Of a stretch of 5,406 bases of DNA, positions 3-5,406 are shown in pieces; the first letter of the stretch is position 1, and each line of letters opens with the position of its first letter. Below the pieces are notes generated by a model. The model did no database searches and was not told the origin of the DNA. It saw only the letters and a program-made list of their open reading frames with translations. A program made the translations under genes and the position numbers. This stretch comes from a virus (taxonomy: Duplodnaviria > Heunggongvirae > Uroviricota > Caudoviricetes), in the IMG/VR virus record IMGVR_UViG_3300028532_000031, positions 1 through 5,406 of that record; one strand, written 5' to 3'.

Positions 3-1256
3 CCGGTACTGACGCGCCAGCTACTGATAGCAGGCGGTGCGTTGCTGGCAATGACTGCAACGATTGGCTCGTTGTCGCTGGTTATTGGGGTGCTTTACGG
101 GAAGCTGGCCACCCTGCGTCTTGGTTTTGACATTCTTACCCGGTCAATGAATGTCGTCAGGGTGTTGCCTGCGCTGTGGGGAATGCTGACGGGTTCCGTT
201 TCTTTACTGGGAGGCGCTATCGGGGCGCTGTTCAGTCCGGTTGGTCTTATCGTGGCTGCGCTTGCCGGAGCTGCTGTTCTTATCTGGAAATACTGGGATC
301 CCATCAGGGCATTTTTTGCCGGGGTGTTCAGCGGGATTATGGAAAGGCTGACCCCGTTGCGCGAAACCTTTGAACGGTTTGGTCCTGTTTTTGACGCAAT
401 CGGAAGCGGGATCAGCCAGGTGTTTAACTGGTTTAAATCGCTGCTGTCACCGATGGAGTCCAGCAAGGAAACGCTGGATAAATGTACCAGTGCTGGCGAG
501 ATATTCGGTAACGTTCTTGGTGGCGCGCTACAGCTTGTTCTGACGCCTGCAAAAATGTTGCTGGATACGCTGGCGTGGATACTTGAAAAACTCGGTGTGC
601 TTCCGGATGAAGCGGAAAGGGCGAGAAAGAAAATCGAAGACGCACAGCGTGCGGCCATTCTTCAGGACAAGGTTGCCTTGCTTCAGGGGGACCTGGCGAA
701 AATCAATCCGCCGAAGCCTGTGGAAAATAGCAATGGCACCGGAGGTGATAAACCCAAAGACAATAAACCGCTCACAGACAGCAATACCGGTACGCTGCGC
801 AGACTCAGCAAAATTGCTGATAACACAGGTAAGCTGGTTGATGAGACGAAAAAACGCATTGGCCCCGGCGATATTGTCTTTAAGAACCTGCCCCGCGCAC
901 TTGCTGTTCGTGGGGAGTGGCAGGAGCGGAAGATTGCGCAGGTCAGTAAGCCTGCCCCCGCAATTAATATCACACCCGTGGTCCCGGCTCCGCTGCCTCC
1001 GGCGCTGGTCCCTGTTGTTGCGGCCAGCTCCCGCCCGGTGGCGGAGGCCATACGATCGCCAGTGGCATCAGTTCCTGCAACTTCCCGTAACCGGGAGCCT
1101 GTTGCCTCCGGATTTGGCGGTGAAATTCATGTTCATCTGCATAACGTTGTTACGCAGAATCCCCGCGAACTGGCGAAACTGGTCGGTGAAATGGTCAGGG
1201 CAGAGGTGGAACGGCGCGCCCGTGCCGGACGTGGCAGTTTTTACGATAAAGATTGA
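3..1256 (+). CDS. Phage tail tape measure protein, C-terminal portion (5' end truncated by window edge)
   Basis: The reading frame is open from nt 3 with no in-frame stop before the window start, so the gene begins upstream; the ORF-track TTG at 42 is not a real start. Translation has long hydrophobic Gly/Ala/Leu segments (e.g. GAIGALFSPVGLIVAALAGAAVLIWKYW) and a Pro/Ala/Val-rich low-complexity stretch, as in tape measure proteins. It sits immediately upstream of a gpU-like gene, matching the P2 T-U order. Stop TGA at 1254-1256. Confidence 0.55.
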   Translation, partial: PVLTRQLLIAGGALLAMTATIGSLSLVIGVLYGKLATLRLGFDILTRSMNVVRVLPALWGMLTGSVSLLGGAIGALFSPVGLIVAALAGAAVLIWKYWDPIRAFFAGVFSGIMERLTPLRETFERFGPVFDAIGSGISQVFNWFKSLLSPMESSKETLDKCTSAGEIFGNVLGGALQLVLTPAKMLLDTLAWILEKLGVLPDEAERARKKIEDAQRAAILQDKVALLQGDLAKINPPKPVENSNGTGGDKPKDNKPLTDSNTGTLRRLSKIADNTGKLVDETKKRIGPGDIVFKNLPRALAVRGEWQERKIAQVSKPAPAINITPVVPAPLPPALVPVVAASSRPVAEAIRSPVASVPATSRNREPVASGFGGEIHVHLHNVVTQNPRELAKLVGEMVRAEVERRARAGRGSFYDKD

Positions 1257-1262
1257 GGAGTC

Positions 1263-1757
1263 ATGATCATGATGATGATCTACGGCATGTTTGTTTTTGA
1301 GCTGCGCACACTGCCGCATCAGCAGTTACAGCAAAACAAAAGCTGGCGGCATGTGAAAAATGAGCGCGTAAACCGCTCAGCAAGCTGGCAGTATATCGGT
1401 GCAGGTGATGATCGCATCGTGCTTTCTGGCGTGCTTTATCCTGAAATTACAGGTGGCGAAGTGTCGCTTTCGCTGCTGACCACGCAGGCATATACAGGAC
1501 GCCCCTGGCCTCTGATTGATGGTGTCGGGCAGATTTACGGCATGTATGTACTGACTGAAACGAATACGACCCGCTCCGAGTTTGATCGCTACGGTAAGGC
1601 GAAAAAGATAGAATTTTCACTGACTCTTGAACGCTGTGATGAGGATTTGCGGGAGCGCCTGCAATCCTCATCGTTCAGTGATATGCTGTCCGGCTTCAAA
1701 GATAAGGTCACATCATCCCTTAACAGCGCGGCCAGCTCCGTTAAAGGGCTGTTTTGA
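1263..1757 (+). CDS. P2 gpU-like phage tail protein
   Basis: 164-aa ORF with the pattern FVFELRTLPHQ...GAGDDRIVLSGVLYPEITGG...GRPWPLIDGVGQIYGMYVL, which I recognise as the phage P2 tail protein U family. GAGGAG at 1255-1260 is only 2 nt from the ATG at 1263, so the true start is more likely the ATG at 1269 or 1272. Stop TGA at 1755-1757. Confidence 0.7.
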   Translation: MIMMMIYGMFVFELRTLPHQQLQQNKSWRHVKNERVNRSASWQYIGAGDDRIVLSGVLYPEITGGEVSLSLLTTQAYTGRPWPLIDGVGQIYGMYVLTETNTTRSEFDRYGKAKKIEFSLTLERCDEDLRERLQSSSFSDMLSGFKDKVTSSLNSAASSVKGLF

Positions 1758-1764
1758 TTAACGC

Positions 1765-1794
1765 AAAACCGCTAATGGTCAGATTAGCGGTTTT
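1765..1794. terminator. Bidirectional intrinsic terminator hairpin between convergent gpU and invertase genes
   Basis: Perfect 12-bp inverted repeat AAAACCGCTAAT (1765-1776) / ATTAGCGGTTTT (1783-1794) around a 6-nt loop GGTCAG. On the plus strand it is followed by TTTTCATTTT; the A-run in the left arm gives a U-run for the minus-strand transcript. It starts 8 nt after the gpU stop and overlaps the invertase stop codon (1784-1786). Confidence 0.5.
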
Positions 1795-2383
1795 CATTTT
1801 CCTGAGTCTGCCTGGTTGTTTCTTCAGCCTGTATATCGCCTACAGGGTGATAACGATAAATCGTCGATATGCCGATGTCGTAAATGATCGCCAGTTGTTT
1901 CCTGTCATGACCGTTTTTAATCAGCCTCGCTATTTGCTCGTGTTGTTCTTTTGTCAACTTCGGGCGACGTCCGCCAATGCGTCCTTGTGCGCGTGCTGCT
2001 GCCAGTCCGGCCAGTGTACGCTCTACAATTAATTCACGTTCCATTTCGGCTAAAGCCCCCATGACGTGAAAAAAGAAACGCCCCATGGGTGTTGATGTGT
2101 CAATGCTGTCCGTCAGACTACGGAAATTAACACCTTTTTCCCGCAATTCCTCAATAAGCGTAATCAGGTGTTTCATACTTCTGCCCAGTCTGTCCAGCTT
2201 CCAGACAACCAGCGTATCTCCTTCTGATAGCGTTCTGAGCAGTTTTTTCAATCCCGGTCTGGCTGATTTCGTTCCGCTGATTTTATCTTCAAAAATCAGT
2301 TCACATCCTGCGCAGTTCAGTGCATTGCGTTGTAAATCCGTGTTCTGGTCATTTGTTGACACACGAATATAGCCAATTTGCAT
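1784..2383 (-). CDS. Serine DNA invertase (Hin/Gin/Cin/Pin family site-specific recombinase)
   Basis: 199-aa product starting MQIGYIRVSTNDQNTDLQRN, with the catalytic Ser in the RVSTNDQ motif, ...VVWKLDRLGRSMKHL..., ...SPMGRFFFHVMGALAEMERELI..., and a C-terminal helix-turn-helix (QLAIIYDIGISTIYRYHP). It is near-identical in pattern to Gin/Hin as I recall them. Start chosen at the ATG at 2383-2381 because AGAGGA (minus strand, 2397-2392) lies 8 nt upstream; the ORF-track extension to 2593 has no such support. Confidence 0.92.
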   Translation of the reverse strand: MQIGYIRVSTNDQNTDLQRNALNCAGCELIFEDKISGTKSARPGLKKLLRTLSEGDTLVVWKLDRLGRSMKHLITLIEELREKGVNFRSLTDSIDTSTPMGRFFFHVMGALAEMERELIVERTLAGLAAARAQGRIGGRRPKLTKEQHEQIARLIKNGHDRKQLAIIYDIGISTIYRYHPVGDIQAEETTRQTQENENR

Positions 2384-2397
2384 AAAAAACATCCTCT

Positions 2398-2961
2398 TTG
2401 TTTCGTGAAAAATACATAGTTGGTATAGGTAGGGATAAAAACGAAAACGTTGGTTTGGGGGAAGGCTCTGCGCTGCCCGTTGGAGTGCCCGTTCCATGGC
2501 CCTCAGCCACGCCGCCAACGGGGTGGCTGAAATGTAACGGCGCAGCATTTTCTTCTGAAGAATACCCGGAATTGGCAAAGGCTTACCCGACAAATAAATT
2601 GCCTGATTTACGCGGTGAATTTATCCGTGGCTGGGATGATGGGCGTGGTGTGGATGCGGGGAGAGCAATATTATCAGCTCAGGGCGATGCCATACGTAAT
2701 ATCTATGGTGAGTTCAGAACTGTAAATACTGAAAATTATTCAATATGGGAAGGAATGAGCACGTTTAAGGGGGCTGTGGTGCCTTTAAATCCCTCCACAA
2801 ACAATAGTTATTTCTCCTTAGTCAAAAGTATGGTGACTGAAAGGGCAGACGGCGCTGTTTACCCAAAAGTGATCGGCCTTGATGCTTCAAAAATTGTTCC
2901 AACTGCAAATGAAAATCGCCCACGCAACATTGCGTTTAATTACATCGTAAGGGCGGCATAA
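2398..2961 (+). CDS. Tail-fibre C-terminal cassette 1 (startless, promoterless alternative receptor-binding segment)
   Basis: No ATG or RBS; the ORF-track start is a TTG. Encodes a phage tail-collar-like region (PVGVPVPWPSATPPTGWLKCNGAAFSSEEYPELAKAYPTNKLPDLRGEFIRGWDDGRGVD), then a unique central segment, then the shared C-terminal end ENRPRNIAFNYIVRAA. The NIAFNYIVR-type end is one I recall from enterobacterial side tail fibre proteins. Confidence 0.75.
   Translation: MFREKYIVGIGRDKNENVGLGEGSALPVGVPVPWPSATPPTGWLKCNGAAFSSEEYPELAKAYPTNKLPDLRGEFIRGWDDGRGVDAGRAILSAQGDAIRNIYGEFRTVNTENYSIWEGMSTFKGAVVPLNPSTNNSYFSLVKSMVTERADGAVYPKVIGLDASKIVPTANENRPRNIAFNYIVRAA
2413..2440 (-). promoter_or_regulatory. 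Candidate sigma70 promoter for the invertase gene, adjacent to putative crossover site 1
   Basis: On the minus strand: -35-like TTTTAT (plus coordinates 2440-2435), 16-nt spacer, -10-like TATGTA (2418-2413), about 30 nt upstream of the invertase ATG. Both hexamers are weak matches; this is a by-eye call only. Confidence 0.25.
2444..2465 (+). other. Putative invertase crossover site (copy 1, invertase-proximal) containing the 22-bp motif AAAACGTTGGTTTGGGGGAAGG
   Basis: The motif recurs at the 5' boundary of every plus-strand cassette. Its right half GGTTTGGGGGAA is the reverse complement of TTCCCCCAAACC, which resembles the Hin/Gin half-site consensus TTnTCnAAAACC. The inner part AAAAC-G-TT-GGTTT is partly palindromic. 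Copy 1 carries an extra in-frame AAAACG immediately 5' of the motif. Confidence 0.45.
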
Positions 2962-2982
2962 AAACGTTGGTTTGGGGGAAGG
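2961..2982 (+). other. Putative invertase crossover site (copy 2), AAAACGTTGGTTTGGGGGAAGG
   Basis: Exact repeat of the 22-bp motif, 517 bp after copy 1. It overlaps the stop codon of cassette 1 and begins the cassette 2 reading frame. Confidence 0.45.
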
Positions 2983-3433
2983 CTCTGCGCTGCCCGTTGG
3001 TGTACCTGTTCCATGGCCCTCAGCCACACCGCCAACGGGGTGGCTAAAATGTAACGGAGCAGCATTTTCTTCTGAAAAATACCCCAAACTGGCAAAGGCT
3101 TACCCAACGTTAAAATTACCGGATTTACGGGGTGAGTTTATCCGTGGCTGGGATGACGGACGTGGTGTGGATGCCGGGCGACAATTATTATCTTCACAGG
3201 GGGATGCAATAAGAAATATTGAGGGGTTCGCAGATGGCGGGATCGGCATGTCTTTTGATGCAATCAGAGGGGCTTTTTACGATGCAGGAACACGATCTGC
3301 GAGAATGCCGAATAACACAACTGATATAGGCAAAACCGATGACCTTGGATTCGACGCCTCTCGTGTCGTGCCAACAGCTAATGAAAACCGTCCTCGTAAT
3401 ATTGCCTTTAATTATATCGTAAGGGCGGCATAA
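2972..3433 (+). CDS. Tail-fibre C-terminal cassette 2 (startless)
   Basis: Same architecture as cassette 1: conserved collar-like 5' part, divergent middle (…GFADGGIGMSFDAIRGAFYDAGTRSARMPNNTTDIGKTDDLGFDASR…), conserved end ENRPRNIAFNYIVRAA. Begins in frame within motif copy 2; the ORF-track start is a TTG. Confidence 0.75.
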   Translation: MGEGSALPVGVPVPWPSATPPTGWLKCNGAAFSSEKYPKLAKAYPTLKLPDLRGEFIRGWDDGRGVDAGRQLLSSQGDAIRNIEGFADGGIGMSFDAIRGAFYDAGTRSARMPNNTTDIGKTDDLGFDASRVVPTANENRPRNIAFNYIVRAA

Positions 3434-3454
3434 AAACGTTGGTTTAGGGGAAGG
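3433..3454 (+). other. Putative invertase crossover site (copy 3), AAAACGTTGGTTTAGGGGAAGG (one substitution)
   Basis: One-mismatch copy of the motif, 472 bp after copy 2, overlapping the stop codon of cassette 2 at the boundary with cassette 3. Confidence 0.4.
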
Positions 3455-3473
3455 TTCGGCGCTGCCTGTTGGT

Positions 3474-3911
3474 GTGGCCGTTCCATGGCCCTCAGCCACG
3501 CTGCCAGCGGGGTGGTTGAAATGTAACGGCGCAGCATTTTCTTCTGAAATGTACCCCAATCTGGCAAAGGCCTACCCCACCAATAAATTACCGGATTTAC
3601 GGGGCGAATTTATTCGCGGCTGGGATGACGGACGGGGCGTTGATAATGGGCGCAACCTACTGTCTGCACAGTCTGACGCTATTCAGAATATAGTTGGCAC
3701 TTTTGGGCGTACTCAGCTTTTTAAAGATGCGTTTAATTCAGGACCATTTAGTCAAACTGACTCTATATTATCAGTAGGCTTACAACCAACTGAGATCATT
3801 GAAGGATATGGTGCTTCTGTATGGACATTCGACGCCTCTCGCTCAGTTCGCACAGCATCTGAAACACGCCCCCATAACATTGCGTTTAATTACATCGTAA
3901 GGGCAGCATGA
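3474..3911 (+). CDS. Tail-fibre C-terminal cassette 3 (startless)
   Basis: Same architecture; divergent middle (…GTFGRTQLFKDAFNSGPFSQTDSILSVGLQPTEIIEGYGASVWTFDASR…); ends ETRPHNIAFNYIVRAA. The in-frame reading extends back through motif copy 3 (KNVGLGEGSALPVGV…); the ORF-track start is a GTG. Confidence 0.75.
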   Translation: MAVPWPSATLPAGWLKCNGAAFSSEMYPNLAKAYPTNKLPDLRGEFIRGWDDGRGVDNGRNLLSAQSDAIQNIVGTFGRTQLFKDAFNSGPFSQTDSILSVGLQPTEIIEGYGASVWTFDASRSVRTASETRPHNIAFNYIVRAA

Positions 3912-3932
3912 AAACGTTGGTTTGGGGGAAGG
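3911..3932 (+). other. Putative invertase crossover site (copy 4), AAAACGTTGGTTTGGGGGAAGG
   Basis: Exact copy of the motif, 478 bp after copy 3, overlapping the TGA stop of cassette 3 at the boundary with cassette 4. Confidence 0.45.
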
Positions 3933-4380
3933 CTCTGCGCTGCCCGTTGGTGTACCTGTTCCATGGCCCTTAGAAACACCGCCAACGGGGTGGCTGAAAT
4001 GTAACGGCGCAGCATTTTCTTCTGAAATGTATCCCAGACTGGCAAAGGCCTACCCCACCAATAAATTACCGGATTTACGGGGTGAATTTATTCGCGGCTG
4101 GGATGATGGGCGCGGGGTGGATGCCGGAAGGGGCATCTTAAGCATGCAGGGGTGGTTAACAGGAAGTCATTATCATAATATTCGGTCATGGGATGCGTGG
4201 GATAACACGGTACTGGTGCCAAATGACAAAGGAGGGGATAGTCTGTTGTCGACAGATAACGCCGTCCGGCAAGGTGCAATTAACGGTAGATTTACCAGTC
4301 AATACAGAACGGAATCCTCAGAGGGGAATGAAACCCGCCCACGCAATATTGCCTTCAATTATATTGTGAGAACCGCATAA
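3922..4380 (+). CDS. Tail-fibre C-terminal cassette 4 (startless), translationally coupled to the tail fibre assembly gene
   Basis: Same architecture; divergent aromatic/His-rich middle (…GWLTGSHYHNIRSWDAWDNTVLVPNDKGGDSLLSTDNAVRQGAINGRFTSQYR…); ends ETRPRNIAFNYIVRTA. Its TAA stop (4378-4380) overlaps the ATG of the next gene (TAATG). Confidence 0.75.
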   Translation: MGEGSALPVGVPVPWPLETPPTGWLKCNGAAFSSEMYPRLAKAYPTNKLPDLRGEFIRGWDDGRGVDAGRGILSMQGWLTGSHYHNIRSWDAWDNTVLVPNDKGGDSLLSTDNAVRQGAINGRFTSQYRTESSEGNETRPRNIAFNYIVRTA

Positions 4381-4991
4381 TGAATAACGCGATATTAAAT
4401 GATGACCTTATTGCCGTACAGGCAGGAAACATCGTCGTTTATAACTATGATGGTGAGACACGGGAATATATTTCCGAATCAACTGAATATCTTGCTGCGG
4501 GTGTCGGTATTCCGGCAAATTCCTGTTTAGATGCCCCGGGCGCACATAAAGCGGGCTATGCTATCCGCCGTTCGGAGAATTTAAATTCATGGGAGTATAC
4601 GCCAGATCATCGTGGTGAAACCGTCTATAGCACTGATACGGGAAACACCGAAGAAATCACGACGCTGGGTGACTACCCGAAAAATACAACCACTATCGCC
4701 CCGTTAACACCATACGATAAATGGGATGGTGAAAAATGGGTGACGGATACCGAGGCACAGCATAGCGCCGCAGTAGAAGCGGCAGAAACACAGCGCCAGT
4801 CGCTGATTGATACTGCAATGGCTTCCATTAGTCTGATTCAGTTGAAGTTGCAGGCCGGGCGGAAGTTGACGCAGGCAGAAACCACCCGGCTTAACGCCGT
4901 GCTGGATTATATAGACGCACTGAACGCAATGGATATAAACATGGCATCAGATATCAACTGGCCGGAAATACCACTGGCAGCAGCCAGTTGA
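4380..4991 (+). CDS. Tail fibre assembly protein (Tfa chaperone; P2 gpG / Mu U-like role)
   Basis: 203-aa ORF directly downstream of and overlapping a tail-fibre cassette, the classic fibre-chaperone position. The C-terminus has the Tfa-like …DINWPEIP… pattern. Family assignment is from position and recalled motif, not a search. Confidence 0.65.
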   Translation: MNNAILNDDLIAVQAGNIVVYNYDGETREYISESTEYLAAGVGIPANSCLDAPGAHKAGYAIRRSENLNSWEYTPDHRGETVYSTDTGNTEEITTLGDYPKNTTTIAPLTPYDKWDGEKWVTDTEAQHSAAVEAAETQRQSLIDTAMASISLIQLKLQAGRKLTQAETTRLNAVLDYIDALNAMDINMASDINWPEIPLAAAS

Positions 4992-4997
4992 ATATAA

Positions 4998-5406
4998 CTA
5001 AGCCGCCCTCACGATATAGTTAAATGCAATATTGCGGGGGCGGGTTTCACTACCACCTGTGTTACCAATACTTCCTCGTGAATGAAGCGTTGGTGATGGA
5101 ATCAAACTCCCTCCTGTATTTGTGGCATCAAGCCCCCTGCCTTGTGTATATGTTTTTTTGAAAATCGTGGCCAACTCCCATTCATCCTTTGTGTCATATC
5201 CATCGTTAGCTACAACAATATGGCGGTGTTTTTCCAACATCCCGGTTTGAATGCTCAATAAAGCGCGTGCTGCATCAATTCCTCGCCCATCATCCCAGCC
5301 ACGAATAAATTCACCCCGTAAATCCGGTAATTTATTGGTGGGGTAGGCCTTTGCCAGTCTGGGATACATTTCAGAAGAAAATGCTGCGCCGTTACATTTC
5401 AGCCAC
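4998..5406 (-). CDS. Tail-fibre C-terminal cassette 5, inverted orientation; 5' end continues beyond the right window edge
   Basis: The minus-strand frame is open to the window end and reads …WLKCNGAAFSSEMYPRLAKAYPTNKLPDLRGEFIRGWDDGRGID…, then a unique middle, then SETRPRNIAFNYIVRAA with stop TAG (plus 4998-5000). The ORF-track start at M5369 is internal. The first 123 nt are the reverse complement of cassette 4 (3990-4112) with one mismatch. Confidence 0.8.
   Translation of the reverse strand, partial: WLKCNGAAFSSEMYPRLAKAYPTNKLPDLRGEFIRGWDDGRGIDAARALLSIQTGMLEKHRHIVVANDGYDTKDEWELATIFKKTYTQGRGLDATNTGGSLIPSPTLHSRGSIGNTGGSETRPRNIAFNYIVRAA

Follow-up and report, generated by a model that had tools for sequence, protein, structure and literature searches.

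A predicted multiple-inversion tail-fibre switch with a single tail fibre assembly gene in a P2-like Escherichia coli prophage

Related invertible tail-fibre loci

The Min system of plasmid p15B, described by Sandmeier, Iida, Arber and co-workers in 1990-1992, can reportedly adopt 240 isomers, the number that the block model described below gives for six sites. It resembles the locus studied here, a 5,406-bp stretch of phage DNA (the window, Table 1), in using a serine invertase of the Din family and in the collar-type 3' cassettes that are joined in turn to a single constant fibre gene, their 5' ends being marked by many 26-bp crossover sites. In p15B Min and its copies on P1/P7-like phage-plasmids, one tfaE-like gene also lies in a two-ended block that starts with a cassette of the same type as cassette 4 of the window (c4). 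Plasmid pMCR_SCKP-LL83, reportedly 99% identical to p15B min, has the layout INV c2 c4 TFA / cC c5 cF cD c3 cA H:cB, with a single tfa. With this plasmid as a proxy, the window was found to be homologous to p15B min (85-92% alignment, 87% for c4-tfa, and about 90% nucleotide identity between the invertase gene and the plasmid pin). The window differs, however, in lying in a P2-like chromosomal prophage with converging tail operons, whereas p15B-type elements belong to a P1-like plasmid prophage in which min adjoins a pseudo-cin. The two also differ in cassette number and in the convergent partner of the block, which is cassette 5 (c5) behind a 6-bp spacer in the window (as in 18 P2-like loci) and cC or cA behind a 5-bp spacer in the P1-like elements.

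The "shufflon" of a P2-like prophage of EPEC E2348/69 is essentially the same locus, 96% identical over the shared parts and with the layout inv, c4, tfa, c5, H:cD. Its inversion was shown by PCR and whole-genome sequencing, which revealed three inverted repeats, three alternative C-termini and four coexisting variants; the chaperone gene and its orientation were not discussed (Goldberg et al. 2014, PMC4272514). Four variants is the block-model count for three sites. EPEC E2348/69 has three cassettes, whereas the window has at least five.

The Mu G, P1 C and P88 segments likewise join a constant 5' fibre part to an invertible 3' part beside a Gin/Cin-type invertase, and carry a chaperone gene directly downstream of the variable part. 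They are symmetric (Sv-U / U'-Sv'), with two chaperones for two fibre types, whereas the window has an asymmetric block, one chaperone, one structural type of tip and extra single-ended cassettes. Two chaperones are present in P88 and in 48 more distant loci, and the first-pass annotation was right that Mu and P1 carry two; in the window and its close relatives, one tfa was found in place of two tips each with its own chaperone. The e14 element combines a single invertible segment with a pair of tfa genes (tfaE and tfaP). The window shares with it a Pin-like invertase, and its tfa is about 84-86% identical in nucleotides to genes annotated as tfaE over bases 1-539, but the 3' 70 nt diverge from tfaE.

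Two more distant systems share single features with the locus. T4 gp37 with its chaperone gp38 is, like lambda Stf with Tfa, a comparable pair of tip and chaperone, and the N-terminal part and last 20 or so residues of the cassettes (NIAFNYIVR.A) align to the gp37 structure 2XGF, with the variable part between them. The variable insert is, however, much shorter in the window, gp38 is not a Caudo_TAP protein, and T4 works without DNA inversion. In the R64 shufflon, multiple inversions similarly place one or another of several 3' cassettes behind a single constant 5' gene part, but that system (pilV) uses the tyrosine recombinase Rci and sfx sites and varies a pilus adhesin without a chaperone gene, whereas the recombinase of the window is a serine resolvase/invertase.

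Table 1. Features of the window
Feature	Position	Strand	Remarks
Tape measure protein, C-terminal part	42..1256	+	annotated so in relatives
P2 gpU-like tail protein	1263..1757	+	Pfam Phage_P2_GpU, E=5.5e-39
Hairpin between convergent gpU and invertase genes, likely bidirectional intrinsic terminator	1765..1794		12-bp stem, then T-run
Serine DNA invertase (Hin/Gin/Cin/Pin/Min family)	1784..2383	-	199 aa; Pfam Resolvase + HTH_7
Crossover site 1	2438..2463	+	core TT 2450-2451; fixed boundary, invertase side
Cassette 1, single-ended silent fibre-tip cassette	2452..2961	+	Pfam Collar; alignment
Crossover site 2	2955..2980	+	core TT 2967-2968; left half holds cassette 1 stop codon
Cassette 2	2969..3433	+	Pfam Collar; alignment
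Crossover site 3	3427..3452	+	core TT 3439-3440
Cassette 3	3441..3911	+	Pfam Collar; alignment
Crossover site 4	3905..3930	+	12-2-12, core TT 3917-3918; left edge of c4-tfa-c5 block
Cassette 4 (c4 type)	3919..4380	+	Pfam Collar; tip always coupled to tfa by TAATG
tfa, tail fibre assembly chaperone gene, the only one of the locus	4380..4991	+	203 aa; Pfam Caudo_TAP
Spacer between convergent tfa and cassette 5 stops	4992..4997		6 bp, ATATAA, read from sequence
Cassette 5 (c5 type), 3' part + conserved collar region	4998..5406	-	Pfam Collar; frame open to window edge

Gene content and the inverting block

The invertase gene adjoins crossover site 1 and its product matches Pfam Resolvase (E=1.4e-51) and HTH_7 (E=1.4e-12), so that, as in the Din family, a small serine recombinase with a C-terminal HTH is encoded beside invertible DNA. 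The crossover sequence AAAACGTTGGTTTGGGGGAA occurs four times in the window against 0 expected; these copies have the 26-bp build of Din-family sites, two 12-bp half-sites (..AAAC / GGTTT..) flanking a 2-bp core, in the form AAAACG-TT-GGTTTGGGGGAA. Site 4 matches the 26-bp crossover site published for prophage Phi2 of EC958, GAGAGATAAACGTTGGTTTGGGGGAA, and the sites of the window are near-identical to the consensus quoted in PMC4134206. No crossover site was found in 3931-5406. Upstream, gpU closes an FI-FII-E-T-U tail operon, which runs towards the inversion region (gene order in two related loci), and the hairpin between gpU and the invertase gene has a predicted energy of -15.6 kcal/mol (z = -3.15).

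All five cassettes match Pfam Collar (PF07484), as expected of collar-type fibre tips (T4 gp37 / gp12-like). The tips are about 150 aa long and consist of a conserved N-terminal part of about 80 aa and a conserved C-terminal part of about 16 aa flanking a variable insert; the segments WLKCNGAAFSSE..LPDLRGEFIRGWDDGRG (N-terminal) and RP.NIAFNYIVR.A (C-terminal) are invariant among the five. Alignment to the T4 gp37 tip 2XGF covers both conserved segments (E=6e-15), the full-length cassette aligns to the short tail fibre 9CUY, and cassette 4 matches both by sequence. The NIAFNYIV motif reportedly returns to the collar domain in the 2XGF structure. The window ends inside cassette 5, whose 5' end and predicted crossover site would lie about 75 bp past the right edge. 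The constant part of the fibre gene is also outside the window, and the junction state of c5 in the window molecule is out of view.

The product of ORF 4380-4991 matches PF02413 Caudo_TAP over residues 78-198 (E=1.2e-33, 116.5 bits against a cutoff of 22.1), which places it in the family of lambda Tfa, P2 gpG, Mu U and e14 TfaE. PF28596 Caudo_TAP_N is on record for an identical protein in precomputed annotation, while a sequence search of the PDB gave no match to a solved Tfa structure. The gene has a dN/dS of 0.26. The cassette 4 stop codon TAA (4378-4380) overlaps the tfa start codon ATG (4380-4382), so that tfa directly follows the end of a fibre gene, as is usual in this family; this TAATG junction is kept in 27 of 29 related loci. 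Together with a weak SD (GAGA) as the tfa ribosome-binding site, it suggests translational coupling of tfa to c4. On the other side, the tfa stop codon TGA (4989-4991) faces that of cassette 5 (CTA at 4998-5000, TAG on the minus strand). The positions and relative orientations given in the first-pass annotation hold, as do the coupling of tfa to cassette 4 and its convergence on cassette 5 across 6 bp. Its statement that five tips share at most one chaperone agrees with a profile HMM built from diverse Tfa proteins, which picked out a single tfa ORF in the window.

Region 4380-5000 lies at the middle of the sole two-ended segment of the locus, in which c4 and tfa converge on c5. In 28 of 29 single-tfa loci the cassette ahead of tfa is of the c4 type, and the c5 type is the convergent partner of tfa in nearly all P2-like relatives (about 25 loci). 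The serine invertase recombines the 26-bp sites at the 5' end of every cassette. The layout always runs from the invertase side through k forward single cassettes, the block and reversed single cassettes to the constant fibre gene. All of more than 40 related loci fit it, including 10 contigs with a 100% identical Tfa. Since the block has no internal crossover site, c4, tfa and c5 flip together, and exactly half of the isomers therefore have tfa pointing the same way as the fibre operon. When the isomers allowed by the model are enumerated, 3, 5 and 6 sites yield 4, 48 and 240 of them, half with tfa in sense: always when c4 is fused to the constant part, never when c5 is, and in half of the isomers for each other cassette. 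Among the 30 related loci with a visible constant region, tfa was in sense in 15 and antisense in 15.

That such inversions take place is seen in an IMG/VR contig (L003) which is an inversion isomer of the window: 4042-5406 align to it in the forward direction with 100% identity, and 951-4124 in the reverse direction with 99.84%. Many other isomers occur among the contigs with an identical Tfa. The tips seen fused to the constant part in relatives are c1, c3, c4, c5, cA, cB, cD, cE and cF. Fusions of a single cassette with tfa antisense were seen for c1 (one locus), c3 (two loci) and cA (two loci), and c5 was fused in four loci, one of which (L094) is a minimal two-cassette version consisting of c4, tfa and c5 only. 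With four sites and five cassettes in the window, and the constant part seen in relatives, the locus has more than two sites, as Min-type systems do. Judged from its sequence, it is a Min/Pin-type multiple-inversion tail-fibre switch of a P2-like (P88/Xuanwuvirus-like) E. coli prophage.

These results bear on the transcription proposed in the first-pass annotation. It had tfa transcribed together with any of cassettes 1-4 that is joined to the constant region, but the block flips independently of c1-c3, so that these single cassettes have tfa antisense in half of the isomers. That tfa is antisense whenever c5 is expressed was correct, as the two are always convergent. The question of how tfa is then expressed is real, and it concerns half of all isomers, not c5 alone.

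A probable shared chaperone for many tips

The company kept by Tfa in other prophages strongly argues that the single Tfa of the locus is a generic chaperone for all cassettes. In three loci, a Tfa 80% identical to that of the window comes directly after c5-type variable regions (99-100% identical), which contradicts the earlier view that cassette 5 has no cognate chaperone. Altogether 18 tip types, c5 and 17 others, were found coupled to the Tfa family of the window, all of them with the T4-gp37-like collar scaffold, and eleven pairs of Tfas are at least 97% identical yet coupled to different tip types. Since the same scaffold and the same Tfa family go with all these tips, one chaperone per tip would be unnecessary. 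The similarity of the Tfa N-terminal domain was 0.936 for Tfas of the same tip type versus 0.865, and this slight difference could reflect some tip specificity instead of linkage.

Cassette 5 had also been proposed to be a low-fitness state. Its dN/dS is 0.09 for the whole cassette and 0.11 for the variable part, at a pS of 0.27 (16 unique sequences), and it is intact in 21 of 21 typed copies. Because of this strong purifying selection, we strongly infer that c5 is a working tip maintained by selection and not a decaying state, although part of the selection may be imported from other prophages in which tfa lies downstream of c5.

Two other accounts of c5 were considered. Cassette 5, or collar-type tips generally, might fold without a chaperone, tfa being needed only for c4; the tips are indeed short, about 150 aa, and no P2-like locus has c5 upstream of tfa. 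This is very unlikely, however, since a tfa homologue is coupled directly to c5-type tips in five other prophages and also to 17 further tip types, a coupling that would be pointless if the tips were chaperone-independent, and since T4 gp37, with the same collar scaffold, needs chaperones. As the window stops inside c5 with the flank out of view, a second, cognate chaperone gene might instead lie just past the right edge or in an overlooked frame, the places where the first-pass annotation proposed to look. In at least 17 related loci extending 5-9 kb, however, c5 is followed only by cassettes or the constant fibre gene and then by gpI and gpJ. The Tfa-profile HMM gave one match per locus, with no second tfa in the window or within about 5-10 kb on either side in seven relatives, and no minus-strand ORF longer than 51 aa was found downstream of c5, in 4380-4997. 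The ORF scan, the HMM and the related loci effectively refute a second tfa, and we regard its existence as extremely improbable.

Supply of Tfa in the two orientations

The best explanation of the locus, to which we give a probability of roughly 0.55, joins flipping of the block, a generic Tfa and a supply of Tfa that does not depend on block orientation. Since c5 and the other cassettes are conserved despite tfa being antisense in half of the isomers, Tfa would be supplied independently of the orientation of the block. The likeliest routes would be transcription independent of the fibre operon, starting at a weak promoter either within c4 or on the segment's invertase side, and use of the weak ribosome-binding site of tfa itself for translation. 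The TAATG coupling counts against independent supply, since it works only with c4 fused to the constant region.

Several promoter candidates were considered. A sigma-70 consensus scan of the window gave 5 sites against 6.7 expected, none of them in 3700-4380. The motif (T/C)TGGCA-N17-TAAATT recurs in each cassette, but it lies in the conserved region coding for LAKAYPTNKLP, and conservation of the protein accounts for it. An Ogr-type late promoter dyad, TGT-N12-ACA, at 2399-2416 in the gap between the invertase gene and c1 was attributed to chance (2 matches against 1.4 expected) and rejected because its spacing to any -10 is wrong on both strands. Third-codon-position and synonymous diversity over the block in 24 loci, scanned for a regulatory element embedded in the coding sequence, showed weak dips only, upstream of tfa at 4140-4230 and 4350-4380. 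Read-through into tfa from the converging FI-FII-E-T-U operon is disfavoured because of the hairpin at 1765-1794 and because P1-like relatives are without an inward-reading operon on the invertase side.

A more specific version of orientation-independent supply, which we put forward only tentatively and consider unlikely as it stands, is that two inward-reading sources bracket the invertible region and express tfa in both block orientations. One source would be the V-W-J-I-H fibre operon and the other a promoter at the invertase-cassette junction (2384-2450), which is conserved, or inside c4. In one orientation tfa would be read from the fibre operon, and in the other through the "forward" silent cassettes, which always run in the same direction as c4-tfa.

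Alternatively, in a generalised form of the main idea of the first-pass annotation, Tfa may be made only if tfa is transcribed together with the fibre operon, every antisense isomer, those expressing c5 among them, giving un- or poorly assembled fibres as a tolerated bet-hedging cost. This is consistent with the scans of the window, which detected no independent promoter, with the conservation of both the TAATG coupling and the 6-bp convergent junction, and with the absence of a second tfa; the isomer frequencies of prophages are moreover determined during lysogeny, when no selection acts on fibre function, in line with the 15:15 tally. It would mean, however, that c5 is never functional in P2-like hosts, in spite of its low dN/dS and its intact copies, and that L094 wastes half of its states. 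The stability of the single-tfa architecture across P2-like prophages and hundreds of P1-like plasmids also speaks against it, and we hold such a cost to be improbable, if worth keeping in mind. Still less likely is a supply in trans, in antisense isomers, from related tfa genes of co-resident prophages such as an e14-type tfaE. DNA at least about 80% identical to the window tfa is present in 1847 of 5426 complete E. coli genomes, in up to 6 copies each, many of the tfa-like copies being annotated as tfaE. Almost identical Tfas also go with different tip types, and Tfa-family chaperones cross-function, lambda Tfa substituting for T4 gp38. The median, however, is 1 place per matching genome, usually the prophage's own copy; the late genes of a helper prophage would not normally be expressed while the phage of the window is induced; and a supply in trans is unavailable after infection of a naive host.

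Taken as a whole, the arrangement is ordinary, because one chaperone appears to fit all tips, and the locus belongs to the known prophage inversion switches that exchange fibre tips and is no new kind of system. The locus is of the textbook type of host-range switch. A single Tfa of this family appears, from the tips to which it is coupled, to be sufficient for many collar-type tips, and new tips could then be swapped in without a matched chaperone, which is of practical use for phage and tailocin engineering and for the reading of prophage annotations. Whether half of the isomers bear an assembly cost or the chaperone is expressed independently of orientation is decided by tfa expression in the antisense half, a modest and directly testable question. 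If two inward-reading sources do bracket the region, an orientation-proof supply and a tip-independent chaperone would allow Min-type switches to expand to 5-9 tips around a single tfa, in contrast to Mu and P1, where each tip requires a chaperone of its own.

A cassette block with one chaperone gene

The window comes from a P2-type prophage of the P88/Xuanwuvirus-like kind, and the region occurs at 94-98% identity in 20 complete E. coli genomes. All five of its fibre-tip cassettes (c1 to c5) have a Pfam Collar domain, and in the cassettes a variable insert is flanked by invariant segments of ~80 aa (N-terminal) and ~16 aa (C-terminal, RP.NIAFNYIVR.A). The crossover sites (four seen, none expected by chance) agree with published 26-bp invertase crossover sites, and each is the start of a cassette. 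The left half-site at 2955-2966, 3427-3438 and 3905-3916 is formed by the last codons and stop of the preceding single cassette (GCA TAA AAA CG); c4 ends in GTG AGA ACC GCA TAA TG and c5 in GCG GCT TAG, with no crossover site after either. A motif search found no site throughout 3931-5406, therefore c4, tfa and c5 form a single inseparable block, whose second crossover site is predicted ~75 bp past the right edge of the window.

Features of the window
Feature	Position	Strand	Remarks
Tape measure protein C-terminus	42-1256	+	
gpU	1263-1757	+	
Hairpin after gpU	1765-1794		-15.6 kcal/mol
Serine invertase	1784-2383	-	Resolvase plus HTH_7
Four crossover sites of identical type	2444, 2961, 3433, 3911	all +	AAAACG-TT-GGTTTGGGGGAA
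c4	3919-4380	+	
tfa, tail fibre assembly protein	4380-4991	+	203 aa; Caudo_TAP PF02413, E=1.2e-33
c5	4998-5406	-	runs off right edge

The features described in the first-pass annotation are all present in the sequence, and its interpretation is in part upheld. Both junctions of tfa were read as it had given them: the tfa ATG (4380-4382) overlaps the c4 TAA (4378-4380) as TAATG, and 6 bp separate the tfa TGA (4989-4991) from the minus-strand c5 TAG (4998-5000). A protein identical to this Tfa also carries PF28596 (Caudo_TAP_N) in precomputed annotation. The claim of a single tfa stood as well. A search with a profile made from diverse Tfa proteins detected exactly one in the window, and annotated relatives and an HMM search revealed one per locus and no second copy within about 5-10 kb on each side, the exception being locus L007 with its duplicated block. 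The second gene proposed for a search beyond the right edge or in another frame was likewise absent from the relatives, and an ORF scan of the window found no minus-strand ORF >51 aa downstream of c5. A 61-nt inverted repeat (4319-4379 and 4999-5059, 79% complementary) flanks tfa; its arms are the stretches of c4 and c5 that encode their conserved C-termini, and in a transcript across the block it could form a long-range stem.

Inversion isomers and related systems

The locus is a Din-family inversion system of the Min type, an already known kind. More than 40 related loci were mapped (IMG/VR contigs, RefSeq chromosomes, P1-like plasmids and ten contigs with a 100% identical Tfa), all sharing one layout: from the invertase side onwards come single cassettes in forward orientation, the block of c4, tfa and convergent c5, single cassettes in reverse and the constant fibre gene (gpH-like, H), with gpI, gpJ and more beyond it. 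In P1-like elements, tip type cC or cA takes the place of c5 in the block. The 4.4-kb contig L003 (IMGVR_UViG_3300028485_000122) is an inversion isomer of the window with the block flipped (4042-5406 matching forward at 100% and 951-4124 in reverse at 99.84%), showing that the block flips as one unit. Both contigs end within the repeated collar region, so that the window is probably a metagenome contig truncated by this repeat.

When the permitted inversions between inverted sites were enumerated, three, five and six sites yielded 4, 48 and 240 isomers, respectively, and exactly half of these had tfa in sense to the fibre gene. The p15B Min system has 240 isomers, as enumerated for six sites. 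Under this model, fusion of c4 to the constant region always leaves tfa co-oriented with the fibre gene, fusion of c5 never does, and fusion of any single cassette does so in half of the cases. Where the constant region was visible, 15 loci had tfa in sense and 15 in antisense; c5 was fused in L005, L012, L088 and L094, and tfa was antisense with c1, c3 or cA fused in L017, L002, L090, L011 and L015. Therefore, the proposed co-transcription of tfa with any of cassettes 1-4 that is joined applies only to c4 and to isomers a single inversion away from the present one. The fusion state of c5 in the window's own molecule is not visible from the window; in L084, the closest complete genome with its left-hand layout, c5 is separated from the constant region by an extra cassette.

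Several loci depart from the common composition. L094 (GCA_018431705.1 contig, 5332-8692) contains only invertase, c4, tfa and H fused to c5, i.e. two cassettes, one chaperone and no singles, and offers the cleanest natural test of whether c5 depends on a co-oriented tfa. In L007 (6500-9100) there are two copies of the block, facing opposite ways (H:cD c5 <TFA <c4 c4> TFA> <c5), with a tfa each way; the duplication may be real, or two isomers may have been assembled together. In the P1-like Min loci L022, L023 and L085, tips of the c5 type occur as ordinary single cassettes, have their own downstream crossover site and can be co-oriented with tfa; this tip thus occurs both as block member and as movable cassette. 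Truncated or frameshifted cassettes, fused or other, were seen in several complete genomes (L001 14180-14330, L084 8078-8303, L002 11455-11971), for example a frameshifted cB in 2014C-3075 and, in CB9615, an H ending in ...GVDMGEHY and a stop; decay is therefore under way in some prophages of this kind.

Plasmid pMCR_SCKP-LL83 (L085), which aligns to the window at 85-92%, has one tfaE-like gene, the same block and nine cassettes; its reported identity to p15B min is 99%. The prophage shufflon of EPEC E2348/69 (L083) is 96% identical and essentially the same locus. Four coexisting variants with three alternative C-termini were shown there experimentally (PMC4272514), and for EC958 comparable inversions of tail-fibre genes with 3' parts of the collar type have been described. 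The EPEC variant count equals the 4 isomers enumerated for three sites. Two chaperone genes in the classical symmetric arrangement occur in phage P88 (L082) and 48 more distant relatives. A Mu/P1-type segment, which would have two chaperones, was excluded, as was an R64-type shufflon, the recombinase being a serine enzyme. In the literature on related switches, which did not extend to the original p15B descriptions, no discussion of the chaperone asymmetry was found.

Tip specificity of Tfa and constraint on c5

The suggestion that c5 has no cognate chaperone does not hold as to specificity. In two-chaperone relatives, a tfa homologue (~80% identical) with overlapping start is directly coupled to 18 collar-tip types, including c5-type tips with variable regions 99-100% identical (L043, L065, L076) and the c1, c3, cA, cC and cF types. 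Eleven Tfa pairs at least 97% identical each sit on different tip types, and mean Tfa identity was 0.945 for the same tip type versus 0.909 for different ones. The conserved N-terminal segment and last ~20 residues of the cassette align to the T4 gp37 tip (2XGF), and the whole cassette to a short tail fibre of solved structure (9CUY), so that every tip consists of the same collar scaffold plus a variable insert. From this we infer that a scaffold-recognising chaperone can serve all tips and that tip-independent specificity accounts for the lone chaperone. In Mu Tfa, the N-terminal domain was reported to bind the fibre and the conserved C-terminal domain to trimerise.

Among 16 unique sequences, c5 had a dN/dS of 0.09 (0.11 in the variable part; pS 0.27), compared with 0.15 and 0.18 for c4 and 0.26 for tfa. 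Cassette 5 is thus at least as constrained as both, which speaks against its being a low-fitness or decaying state.

Supply of Tfa in antisense isomers

Since tfa is antisense to the fibre operon in half of the isomers, a situation general to this class of inversion systems, Tfa, if needed, must be made there too. The TAATG overlap and a weak Shine-Dalgarno sequence suggest coupling to c4 translation, which would work only when H is fused to c4. Transcripts of the converging tail operon are predicted to stop at the good terminator hairpin after gpU, and this operon is absent in the P1-like context. In L001 (3905-10757) and P88 (1382-8215), the P2 order is inverted for the FI-FII-E-T-U tail operon, which therefore runs towards the invertase and fibre operon; gene D lies apart on the other strand, beside ogr and a hok/gef toxin gene. 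About one in three E. coli genomes carries related tfa genes elsewhere, which makes supply in trans possible, but not dependable. Promoter scans and a synonymous-diversity scan found no convincing independent tfa promoter. Mainly because c5 is conserved and the single-tfa design is evolutionarily stable, including in the minimal L094, we favour orientation-independent expression of tfa, which would start from a weak, unrecognised promoter.

A sigma-70-like motif, (T/C)TGGCA-N16/17-TAAAxT, lies in the sense direction in the LAKAYPTNKLP coding region of every cassette (2572-2600, 3089-3116 and equivalent places in c3 and c4; TAAATT in c1, c3 and c4, TAAAAT in c2), at a scan count not above chance and confounded by protein conservation. 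The sequence between invertase and first crossover site (2384-2443), which must hold the invertase promoter, is highly conserved in all single-tfa loci, P2-like and P1-like (L001-L028 and L083-L095 compared), and wholly different in two-chaperone relatives.
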